Positions 1-3,000 of a DNA stretch of 64,000 bases are shown here, piece after piece. Source of the DNA: a virus. Its lineage: Duplodnaviria > Heunggongvirae > Uroviricota > Caudoviricetes. The stretch is taken from the IMG/VR virus record IMGVR_UViG_2877245776_000006; one strand, written 5' to 3'. The position numbers are program-made. How positions within the stretch are numbered: the first letter of the stretch is position 1; each line of letters starts with the position of its first letter.

Positions 1-3000
1 TGCCATGAATCGAAGGTCAGTCGTACCGACTGGCGATACATTGCGGCGATTTTATGTGCGTTCCAGATGGCATCTGATATCAGTCCGATCAGCCGGGCGT
101 TCAACCATGCCATTAACGTTCATGCAAATAAAAAACGTCCGGTTGGGGCCGGACGTTCTGAGCAAATCCTGATGAATATTTGATATTCAGGCAGGGCATG
201 GAGCAATACACGGGAATAATTCTGCCACATCTGGAAGAATTTCGCCAGCAACAACACCAACCGCAGCAGCCTGAAGCCGATTGGGTTAACCCGGAGATAC
301 CGGGACCGTCTGTGAAGATGTGCAGTCACACCAATGTGCAGTCACACCAACCGCAGCAGCCTGAAGCCGATTGGGTTAACCCAGGAGATACCGGGACCGT
401 CTGCGGTATGGAGTAAATCTTGTATGCGAGGGGACTATGCGTAATTACGCAACAATTTCACCTCAGTTCTGGTTAGGCGATACAGGGCGAAAACTAAGGA
501 AGTCTGGTCCGGAATGTATGGTAGTGGCGTTGTATATGATGACCTCGCCTCATTCCAATATGCTGGGCCTTTATTACCTGCCTGTTTTGTACATTGCTCA
601 CGAAACCGGACTTGATCCTGAAGGGGCTTCTAAGGGGCTTCAAATGGCTTGCGAGGCTGGTTTTTGCAGCTATGACCATGATTCTGAGGTTGTATGGGTG
701 CATGAAATGGCAGCATGGCAGGTTGGTGAAGCGCTGAAACCAGGCGATAACCGTTGTGCTGGGGTAAGAAATGAATATTCCGCGTTGCTGGAAAATCCTT
801 TTTTATCATCCTTTTATGATAGATATAAGGATGATTTCCACCTGGATGTCAGACGTGAATCATGTCGGAAAATTGAAGCCCCTTCAGAGCCCCTTTCAAG
901 CCAAGAACAAGAACAGGAACAGGAACAGGAACAGGAAAGAGATAAAACCCTTCTGGTCCATGGCGAAAAAATCGCCACGGACCCACTGGTGGATTCTTGT
1001 CCCGTTCTGACTGAACGTCCAGGACCAGCTGGCATGACACCGGAAGCAGATTCCGGGCGTTGTGTGCAGCAGGTGCTGCACGTCGAACCGGAGCAACAAC
1101 ACCAACCGCAGCAGCCTGAAGCCGATTCCGCGATGAGCGGGAAGCCGATTGGGTTAACCCGGGCGATGCCGGGACCGTCTGCGGGACGAGTTGATTATCC
1201 TGACGTGTTCGAACGGGTCTGGCGTGAATATCCGCATCGGGCAGGGTCAAACCCGAAGAAATCCGCGTTCAATGCCTGGAGGGCCAGATTACGCGAAGGG
1301 GTGTCACCGGATGTCGTGCTGGATGGCGTGAGGCGTTACGCAAGATACCTGGAGGCTACCGGGAAAGTGGGAACTGAATTTGTTCAGCAGGCATCGACGT
1401 TTTTTGGCCCGAACAGGAATTTCGAAAATCCGTGGGCGCTGCCGAAGGCTGGCGCAGTCAGCCTGCGTTGCGTGAATCACATTTCTGAACCGGACACCGA
1501 AATTCCGCCGGGTTTCAGGGGGTAATCAGCCATGAAAAACATTTCGACAGGAGGGATTCTTGAACGGGTGCGCCGTCTGGTACCACCGCACGTTACAGCA
1601 CCGTTCCGGACGACCGACGAGTGGCTGGAATGGCAACTGGCTGAGGGCCGGAAGCGCAGCGAGGAAGTTAACCGCCAGAATCACCAGACGCGGGTTGAAA
1701 AAATCCTGAATCGTTCGGGCATCCAGCCGCTTCACAGGAAGTGCTCATTCGGGAACTACCGGGTGCAGAACGACGGTCAGCGCCATGCTCTGAGTCAGGC
1801 AAAATCCATCGCGGCAGAGCTGCATACCGGCTGCACGAATTTCGTGTTCAGCGGTAAACCTGGCACCGGGAAAAATCACCTTGCAGCAGCGATTGGTAAT
1901 CGGCTGATGGCGAAGGGGAGAAGCGTGATTATCGTCACCGTGTCCGATGTCATGAGTGTGTTGCATGACGGCTACGACAACGGCAAGTCTGGTGAGAAAT
2001 TTTTACAGGAGCTTTGTGGCGTTGACCTTCTGGTCCTGGATGAAATTGGCATGCAGCGGGATACGCGCAACGAGCAGGTCATACTGAACCAGATCGTCGA
2101 CCGCAGAACGGCATCACTGCGCAGTGTCGGGATGCTGACGAACCTGAATCACGCAGCGATGAGCACACTCCTCGGCGAGCGGGTGATGGACCGTATGACC
2201 ATGAACGGTGGTCGTTGGGTGAATTTTAACTGGGAGAGCTGGCGGTCAAACGTTGGGCGTCAGGGTATGTGAGAATTTTTGACGAGGTAAATTTTCGATG
2301 GAAACCGTATTGCATGCACTGAAAGCGATGGGTAAAGCCAATTCTGTTGAACTGGCGGCGCGGCTTGATATCAGCCGTGAAGAAGTTCTCAACGAACTGT
2401 GGGAACTCAAAAAAAATGGTGTTGTTGATAAAACGGGTCACACCTGGTTTCTGGCTGTCGAAGGTGAATCCGGGGTAACCGAAGGGCAGGCACTACAATC
2501 TGAAGCGCCGGATGTGGTAACCGAAGAGGTCGCTCCAAAAGTTAGCGCTGACATGATGATTGAGTTTATCGCTCAGGAGGGGGCTAAAACCTGTGAAGAA
2601 ATAGCGGGTAAGTTCGGAGTTACCACTCGTAAGGTTGCTTCCACTTTGGCGGTAGTAACAGCAACGGGGCGCCTGGTGCGCGTGTCTATCAAGGGAAAAT
2701 TCCGTTATAAAGTGCCTGACGTCGAAAACGGCGATTTGAGCGCGTCATCATCGCAGGATGAGAATATCACACACGAAGCAGAAAACAGCGCGTCAGGCGA
2801 CGAACTGAATCGCTTTCCGTTGATGTCAGAGGGCACGGCAAAGGCCTGTACAGATGAGTTTATCCGGGATGTTCCGTCGTTCACCGAAAAATATGCTGGT
2901 GCAGTGACCCTTCCACCTCTACGGGCCGCCAGTCGTGAACTTCGTCGCGCCAAAAAACAGGTCCAGAAGTGGGAGCGTGTCTGTGCTGCACTACGTGAGC

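Follow-up and report, generated by a model that had tools for sequence, protein, structure and literature searches.

A polymorphic repeat array beside the replication initiator of a Shiga-toxin prophage is probably a displaced partial copy of the linker-coding DNA of the initiator

The replication origins of lambdoid phages lie inside the initiator gene, and in lambda, 434, 21, and phi80, the iterons are placed inside the initiator gene O. These iterons are expected to be short repeats that change with the N-terminal domain (N-domain) of the initiator. In the Bacillus phage SPP1, G38P-binding repeats are found inside gene 38 and again as a second copy elsewhere in the genome, i.e., oriL and oriR. 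Lambda-type origins composed of O and iterons belong to Shiga-toxin (Stx) phages such as 933W (PMC7466680). The Rac prophage origin, oriJ, is an active origin, and mosaics are formed by relaxed homologous recombination between phages and prophages (PMC3945230). The stretch analyzed here, 64,000 nt of the IMG/VR record IMGVR_UViG_2877245776_000006, is called the window at its whole length. Its start falls inside a 75/02-like Shiga-toxin prophage, and direct repeats were found there between the cII gene and the replication initiator gene, with a further copy inside the initiator gene. The upstream array is probably a displaced partial duplication of the initiator linker-coding DNA, evolving as a minisatellite without demonstrated function. 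The literature searched on Stx-phage origins, phages 75/02 and POCJ13, and Rac oriJ described neither these repeats nor this origin, and no sequence-level description of Rac oriJ was found in it either.

The array is comparable to minisatellite loci, i.e., variable number tandem repeats, and to partial gene duplications in prophages. The shared features are head-to-tail copies, polymorphic copy number, nested smaller repeats, indels between short direct repeats, and deletions by recombination of dispersed copies. Unlike in usual minisatellites, the source is the linker of the adjacent initiator, and the copies bracket the origin and the DNA-binding domain, so recombination between them would specifically inactivate replication. 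As in SPP1, a segment of the initiator gene is present again outside the gene. However, the duplicated segment of SPP1 consists of binding repeats and an AT-rich region, whereas the segment here is GC-rich and has no candidate binding motif.

The ori-lambda type (lambda, 434, 21, phi80, and 933W) is alike in its two-domain initiator and in an origin that is very probably within the initiator gene. It is also alike in short repeats at the border of the N-domain and the linker, followed by an AT-rich or purine-rich tract, and in that these repeats differ with the N-domain. This likeness fits clusters of 11-nt AAGGGGCTT and 10-nt GTCACG repeats, not the 69-93-nt units of the array. Unlike the ori-lambda type, the partner is a DnaC/IstB-like loader instead of lambda P, and two candidate iteron clusters are placed approximately 250 nt apart, one in N-domain coding sequence and the second in either orientation. 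The locus also appears to resemble E. coli dnaT-dnaC and Rac ydaU-ydaV-ydaW in a weak DnaT-like C-terminal region followed by a DnaC-like ATPase and a DUF1627 (YdaW-type) protein.

Two upstream units (A and B) and one intragenic unit (C) were recognized near the window start, and a related unit (D) was recognized in the linker of a second initiator (Table 1). The repeats are real, as chance cannot give matches this long in 1.7 kb. A sequence-only reading of the window had described two upstream direct repeats of roughly 60 bp, an interrupted third copy in the initiator linker, and a related segment in the second initiator. All of these copies were recovered, but the units proved longer, i.e., approximately 69-70 nt in the short form and approximately 93 nt in the full form. 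A and B are placed head-to-tail, and their period is 90 nt in the first part and 91 nt in the second because A is one base short. C begins with a segment (1092-1127) identical to that of A (247-282) at 36/36 positions. The next 23 nt (1128-1150) are extra nucleotides between two GAAGCCGATT decamers, and this segment is missing from A and B. The unit is then resumed (1151-1184), and an overlapping 49-nt reference segment is 90% identical to B. As A and B align to C and differ mainly by the 23-nt segment between identical decamers, they look like C after a slippage deletion. The GC content of the unit is 60-68%. The sequence GAAGCNGATT occurs seven times in the window versus 0.6 expected, and all seven are within these units or linkers. 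The perfect 10-bp palindrome GGGTTAACCC occurs exactly three times, once each in A, B, and C. As direct repeats separated by 755-845 nt, the upstream and intragenic copies flank the ribosome-binding site and N-domain of the initiator, together with the probable origin core.

The two initiators differ in their N-domains, and their DNA is homologous from approximately 1035 through the stop codon. In 45-nt windows, the identity of D to C is 71-89%. As this is no higher than the identity of the C-terminal domain (C-domain), the two initiators were judged to show no special conservation of the unit at the DNA level. Because the homology is confined to this part and the unit is no better kept than the C-domain, the unit belongs to the exchangeable C-terminal module, not to the origin-recognizing part. 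In each of the two prophages, the DnaC-like and DUF1627 genes accompany this module.

The linkers showed further repeats and shifts. In the second initiator, a 36-nt segment, CCKGAAGCCGATTC...GAAGCCGAT, is present twice (57111-57146 and 57207-57242) and encodes PEADS-like motifs, and the linker-coding DNA thus seems to be duplication-prone itself. The linker DNA of the first initiator (1141-1190) and the second (57233-57282) is approximately 71-89% identical with part in different frames, i.e., SGKPIGLTRAMPGPSAG versus READRVAPENTGQPVG, and a 1-nt indel brings the frame back before GRVDYP. This frame difference is best explained by frameshifts that compensate each other in a linker tolerant of sequence change.

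The array is polymorphic in copy number and form. Among 5426 complete E. coli genomes, the cII-array-initiator junction was found in 81, and the A/B tandem junction was found in 68 of these, which thus carry at least two units, and three of which have it twice. The others include single-unit arrays (e.g., L004 and L007; approximately 11 by subtraction), the locus L005 with three full 113-nt units, and one clone, represented by two genomes, with a deletion (H51 and H52; L006). Contigs from the protein database added three 90-nt units (L216 and L217), two units with five copies of the 16-mer ATGTGCAGTCACACCA (L218), two units with the 23-nt segment in the first only (L214), and one unit with the 23-nt segment plus a 3-nt deletion (L215). 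In total, 13 distinct intact arrays were seen, and the spacer from cII to the initiator ATG ranged from 186 to 434 nt. Across them, one, two, or three units were present, the 23-nt segment was in none, in one of two, in the only one, or in all three units, and the 16-mer was in two or five copies. Head-to-tail copies, copy-number polymorphism in near-identical genomes, a nearby source, i.e., unit C, and recombinant products were thus all found, as in a minisatellite. The module was also found in E. coli O104:H4 chromosomes (H29-H35, i.e., C227-11, 2009EL-2050, 2009EL-2071, and others), 99% identical and with two units.

A deletion product was observed in E. coli SW071611 (L006). In this genome, the left half of an upstream-type unit, lacking the 23-nt segment, is fused to the right half of the intragenic type (GGGCGATGCC...GACGAGTTGATTATCC). 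With this fusion, the initiator has lost its ribosome-binding site and two-thirds of its length from the N-terminus, and PGAP annotates the remainder as a pseudogene. In sequence, this fusion appears as the expected product of homologous recombination between direct repeats. In a close relative with two upstream units, L146 (IMGVR_UViG_2740892231_000013), the longest initiator ORF (open reading frame) has 287 amino acids (aa) and starts only at MACEAGF. Its N-terminal region may be disrupted, and it may be another decaying copy.

Variants shared between the upstream and intragenic copies were also found. L005 has GATGCC in all three upstream units and in its own intragenic copy, where the window has GAAGCC, and its proximal unit and intragenic copy both carry GGGAGATGCC. 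In L214, the 23-nt segment of unit 1 is identical to the intragenic segment of the same genome. These shared variants suggest occasional gene conversion between upstream and intragenic copies.

The upstream copies are restricted to one clade. Of 80 IMG/VR loci encoding initiator relatives, only six (L014-L019) have upstream copies, and all six are 96-99% identical. Relatives of the initiator at 53-71% identity (L020-L029 and L049) have no upstream copies and have unrelated genes upstream. By scanning IMG/VR for the unit core, among the 80 loci listed, 72 had one copy, six had three copies, and two had two copies. The single copies were intragenic wherever the gene was complete, and all multi-copy loci listed were in the window clade. 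Three kinds of N-domain were found among the listed unit-bearing loci, i.e., approximately 50 of type 2 (MANAWLRLW...), approximately 12 of type 1b (MRDYAKVS...), and eight of type 1a (MRNYATIS..., the window clade). Upstream copies were found with type 1a only, and none with types 1b and 2, which make up approximately 90% of those listed. The unit is wholly absent from L028 and L049, type-1 relatives that keep both the N-domain and the 11-mer clusters. The presence and position of the unit are therefore not conserved in homologous replicons, since the upstream copies are restricted to a clade at least 96% identical and vary there in number and form.

The array has probably evolved as follows. 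The linker-coding unit (approximately 93 nt in full) would have been copied to the place between cII and the ribosome-binding site of the initiator, where it now forms a short tandem array. Changes in the number of units (1-3) and of junction 16-mers (2 or 5) would come from unequal crossing-over or replication slippage, and slippage between the two decamers would drop the 23-nt segment. From time to time, gene conversion with the intragenic copy would keep the copies similar, and it could also bring the lost segment back. The ribosome-binding site, the N-terminal DNA-binding domain, and the probable origin core are all enclosed by the upstream and intragenic direct repeats. Recombination of one repeat with the other would therefore remove all three and leave a replication-dead prophage. 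We infer both these recombination mechanisms and the neutrality of the array.

Several points weigh against the duplication and minisatellite explanation. The evidence suggesting gene conversion consists of few variable positions. No zero-copy variant with an intact initiator turned up, i.e., every intact clade member seen keeps at least one upstream unit. This could come from recent common ancestry, all being at least approximately 97% identical, or from selection. The ORF over the array is open and in frame in the commonest variants (42, 72, 88, and 102 aa), which is somewhat beyond what fully neutral sequence needs. In addition, the GGGTTAACCC palindrome and other small dyads in the unit could be protein-binding sites.

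The ORF over the array could be functional, as a small protein or as an upstream ORF whose stop sets translation of the initiator, with the number of repeats as a switch. It had been considered that the repeats might be part of an intact upstream gene such as cII. However, cII ends at position 183, and the repeats fall inside this ORF, which is annotated in all of the phage records and has its own PHROG. In the common variants with one, two, and three units (42, 72, and 102 aa), the frame runs on to one shared stop that precedes the initiator ATG by 20 nt, and other variants (P0004, P0008, and P0010) shift frame and end at ATGCGTAA, overlapping the initiator start. On the other hand, products of nine lengths were found in public data, i.e., 42, 46, 51, 58, 62, 72, 76, 88, and 102 aa, and only the first approximately 28 residues are constant. 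Beyond these, length and frame vary, with tails such as ...VCGME versus ...PGPSAVWSKSCMRGDYA, and in L005, the ORF ends within unit 1 and PGAP annotates no gene. In the protein search, the products were found in E. coli only, and none was fused to another domain or placed inside a larger protein. No Pfam or NCBIfam match and no homolog outside the E. coli/Shigella clade was detected, and the match to the Shine-Dalgarno sequence is poor. Conserved length, frame, and sequence and wider homologs, as in a protein-coding gene, were thus not found. The ORF frame equals the linker frame of the initiator over the first part of the unit (QQ(H/K)HQPQQP(E/D)AD), and over the whole unit in full-form copies, because it is copied coding DNA. 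Judged from these sequences, the ORF is probably not a real gene, and a function for it in either form is quite unlikely.

Two other readings of this segment were considered and set aside. A remnant of an older gene starting with MEQYTGIILPHLEEF had no support, since no longer protein with that N-terminus was found in 5.8 billion proteins. An RNA element was rejected because the folding of 184-440 is not superior to that of shuffled sequences (z = -0.48) and a search of Rfam at E <= 1 returned nothing beyond noise under the threshold.

A more speculative idea is that the array tunes the replication module as a cis-element. According to one version, changes in the number of units or 16-mers would shift the stop of the upstream ORF phase-variably, from 20 nt before the ATG to overlapping it. 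In the other, the units would bind a protein of the module, e.g., the helix-turn-helix protein of the DUF1627 family, and the copies would bracket and loop the origin. If true, the array would be a repeat-number switch on Shiga-toxin phage replication, which in the upstream ORF version would vary the translation of the initiator and, with it, the replication of the prophage after induction. We give this idea a very low probability.

Better candidates for iterons were found elsewhere in the initiator gene. The initiator-binding sites are most likely the 11-nt AAGGGGCTT repeats of two clusters, followed by (GAACAG)n, and the initiator would bind to these 11-mers. The window has four exact AAGGGGCTY sites, all in the initiator gene, as pairs at 621/632 (+) and 876/887 (-). 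The GC fraction is 0.25 at 800-839, between the clusters, and the purine fraction is 0.82 at 900-939, right after cluster II. An AT-rich inverted repeat, ATCATCCTTTTAT / ATATAAGGATGAT, is also placed between the clusters (805-835) and might serve for unwinding or for a host factor.

For the motif A[AG]GGGGC, 71 distinct related loci were surveyed, which range from E. coli to genomes of betaproteobacteria and have N-domains 28-99% identical (all but one at least 46%). Site I was searched at +170 to +215 and site II at +410 to +490, and the background was 0.21 per kb. The motif was present at site I in 67/71 loci and at site II in 65/71, where it was forward only in 17, reverse only in 46, and in both orientations in two. 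The peptide at site II depends on this orientation (EGAFKGLRS versus EAPSEPLSS), but the DNA motif, the 11-nt phasing, and the following (GAACAG)n are kept. Because the motif is kept while the encoded peptide changes, the conservation is at the DNA level. The second initiator has GTCACG clusters at equivalent places instead of AAGGGGCTT clusters, and the motif therefore co-varies with the N-domain as iterons should. The 11-mers thus show short repeats in helical phase, DNA conservation linked to the N-domain, and an adjacent AT-rich or strand-asymmetric tract.

That the large units are themselves origin iterons or auxiliary initiator-binding sites, with the upstream array and intragenic copy forming or extending the origin as in lambda O, is very unlikely. 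The sequence-only reading had offered origin iterons beside a duplicated linker fragment left by recombination. Its premise that, as in lambda, the initiator gene contains the origin is probably right. The repeats sit in and beside this gene, GAAGCNGATT is over-represented and confined to these regions, and SPP1 offers a parallel with initiator-binding repeats both within its initiator gene and elsewhere. However, the unit is found with unrelated N-domains (types 1a, 1b, and 2), of which types 1 and 2 have their own short-repeat clusters, while L028 and L049 do without it and upstream copies are limited to one clade. The unit is also too large, i.e., 69-93 nt versus the expected approximately 10-22 bp. 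Its sole sub-repeat is the decamer pair 23 nt apart, of which most upstream copies have lost one member, and its period is 90, 91, or 113 nt. No AT-rich stretch adjoins the GC-rich unit, whereas the AT-rich and purine-rich tracts adjoin the 11-mers, and no AAGGGGCTY with up to one mismatch was found in 184-436. The GAAGCNGATT decamer resembles the candidate iteron GAAGCCCCTTC at 9/11 positions. The likeness of GAAGCCGATTC to GAAGCCCCTTC was set aside as coincidence because the same decamers are in the second initiator, whose candidate iterons differ, and a 7/9 core match in a 93-nt unit is, by rough estimate, not unexpected by chance. The duplicated linker fragment, in contrast, agrees with one recent clade, with copy-number and indel variation, and with recombination involving the intragenic copy.

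The unit might instead bind another factor of the module or the host, i.e., the DUF1627 helix-turn-helix protein or the loader, and the upstream copies would then bracket the origin. The unit is part of the C-terminal module that travels with the DnaC-like and DUF1627 genes, and the GGGTTAACCC palindrome is exact only in A, B, and C. However, the palindrome is lost in the unit of the second initiator, which reads CGGGTAGCCCC, L028 and L049 are without the unit, and the other two N-domain types are without an upstream copy. Such a role is hardly to be expected. Tandem repeats tend in general to be mis-assembled, but an assembly artefact or chance similarity has a negligible probability, because phage genomes assembled independently and 68 complete E. 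coli chromosomes contain the same two-unit array and the variants are discrete and internally consistent.

The gene order at the window start, from the phage records and the ORF list, is cII, the 72-aa hypothetical ORF, the initiator, the DnaC/IstB-like loader, and the DUF1627 gene. Window positions 1-1700 are 100% identical to Shigella phage 75/02 Stx (NC_029120, 9831-11530), and 97.7-98.8% identical to phages POCJ13, phiSTEC1589-Stx1c, and PhiR5_2. The coordinates of the features are collected in Table 1.

Table 1. Features of the two replication regions (positions in the window).
Feature	Position	Strand	Remarks
oop-like intrinsic terminator hairpin	132-159	-	Terminator scan; 11-pair stem then T run; within 3' end of cII
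cII stop codon	181-183	+	Phage records, ORF list
Unique spacer, cII stop to first repeat unit	184-246		Invariant among relatives; kept in all array variants
Annotated 72-aa "hypothetical protein" ORF (phrog_2751), probably not a gene	198-416	+	Phage records; spans the repeats; starts 15 nt past cII stop
Upstream unit A	247-315	+	Short form, without 23-nt segment; 1 nt fewer than B
Two perfect copies of 16-mer ATGTGCAGTCACACCA	318-349	+	At A/B junction
Upstream unit B	337-406	+	Short form
Replication initiator gene, 362 aa	437-1525	+	N-domain type 1, acidic QEQEQE linker, variable linker, DnaT-C-like C-domain
Candidate iteron cluster I, AAGGGGCTT x2	620-641	+	11-nt spacing; within N-domain coding sequence (EGASKGL)
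Candidate iteron cluster II, AAGGGGCTY x2 and degenerate third	876-902	-	11-nt spacing; N-domain/linker border
(GAACAG)5.5 purine-rich repeat	905-937	+	Directly after cluster II; encodes QEQEQE linker
Intragenic unit C	1092-1184	+	Full form; linker-coding region of first initiator
DnaC/IstB-like loader gene	1532-2272		Directly after initiator gene
DUF1627 (YdaW-like, helix-turn-helix) protein gene	2298-3068
Second initiator, candidate iteron cluster I, GTCAC(G) x4	56681-56719	+	Approximately 10-nt spacing
Second initiator, candidate iteron cluster II, GTCACG x5	56941-56989	+	10-nt spacing
AGATACAGATAA x2	56990-57013	+	In AT-/purine-rich stretch after cluster II of second initiator
Related unit D	~57184-57276	+	Linker of second initiator (56547-57617); partly in another frame

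The initiator of the window start matched phrog_1701 ("DnaD-like helicase loader") over its full length, and the PHROG labels for the family are DnaD-like or replisome-organizer. No significant match was found in Pfam, hence none to a lambda O family, and Pfam and NCBIfam gave nothing useful for the N-domain. Residues ~281-362 weakly matched the DnaT C-terminal domain structures 2ru8 (E = 0.0035) and 6aep (E = 0.01), and the last approximately 25 residues had a weak NCBIfam match to DnaT. By alignment, the initiator is a domain mosaic. Members of the family occur in prophages of enterobacteria, in several betaproteobacterial genomes, and on many contigs of uncultivated viruses.

In the spacer between cII and the array, an oop-type promoter is expected by analogy with lambda. 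A consensus scan of the array and its surroundings gave no sigma-70 promoter, nor an oop-type one on the minus strand in 184-246, and only weak hexamers were seen by manual reading. No phage outside the clade has this spacer, and a distant blastn of 150-440 against phages matched the same six records only. On the minus strand (130-188), Rfam gave a weak sub-threshold match to the prophage small RNA family AgvB (21.8 bits versus a gathering score of 56).

The end of the 75/02-Stx-like prophage is near window position 51804, and a second lambdoid immunity and replication region begins near 54258 (approximately 54258-60000). This region is 93-95% identical to phages Tritos, Evi, and 689R5, and it includes the second initiator, which is thus part of a lambdoid prophage other than the first. 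In the C-domain, the DnaC-like gene, and the DUF1627 gene, the DNA of the two replication modules is 80-90% identical, which would allow the prophages to recombine with each other. Two small overlapping ORFs (96 and 64 aa) on the minus strand at 54680-55164, beside the repressor of the second prophage, resemble a RelE/ParE-like toxin-antitoxin pair by eye only.

The duplicated linker explains as a repeat artefact the "hypothetical protein" that is annotated in the Stx1 phages 75/02 and POCJ13 and in prophages of O104:H4 and other Shiga toxin-producing E. coli. The array is a hypervariable marker for this phage lineage, and recombination between the upstream and intragenic copies would be a concrete route for such prophages to lose replication. 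The 11-mer clusters place the probable origin of a widespread and uncharacterized initiator family. At the DNA level, the evidence for this origin is unusually clean, since neither the sequence nor the position of the site changes when its orientation is reversed, and the origin of DnaC-type Stx phages becomes directly testable.

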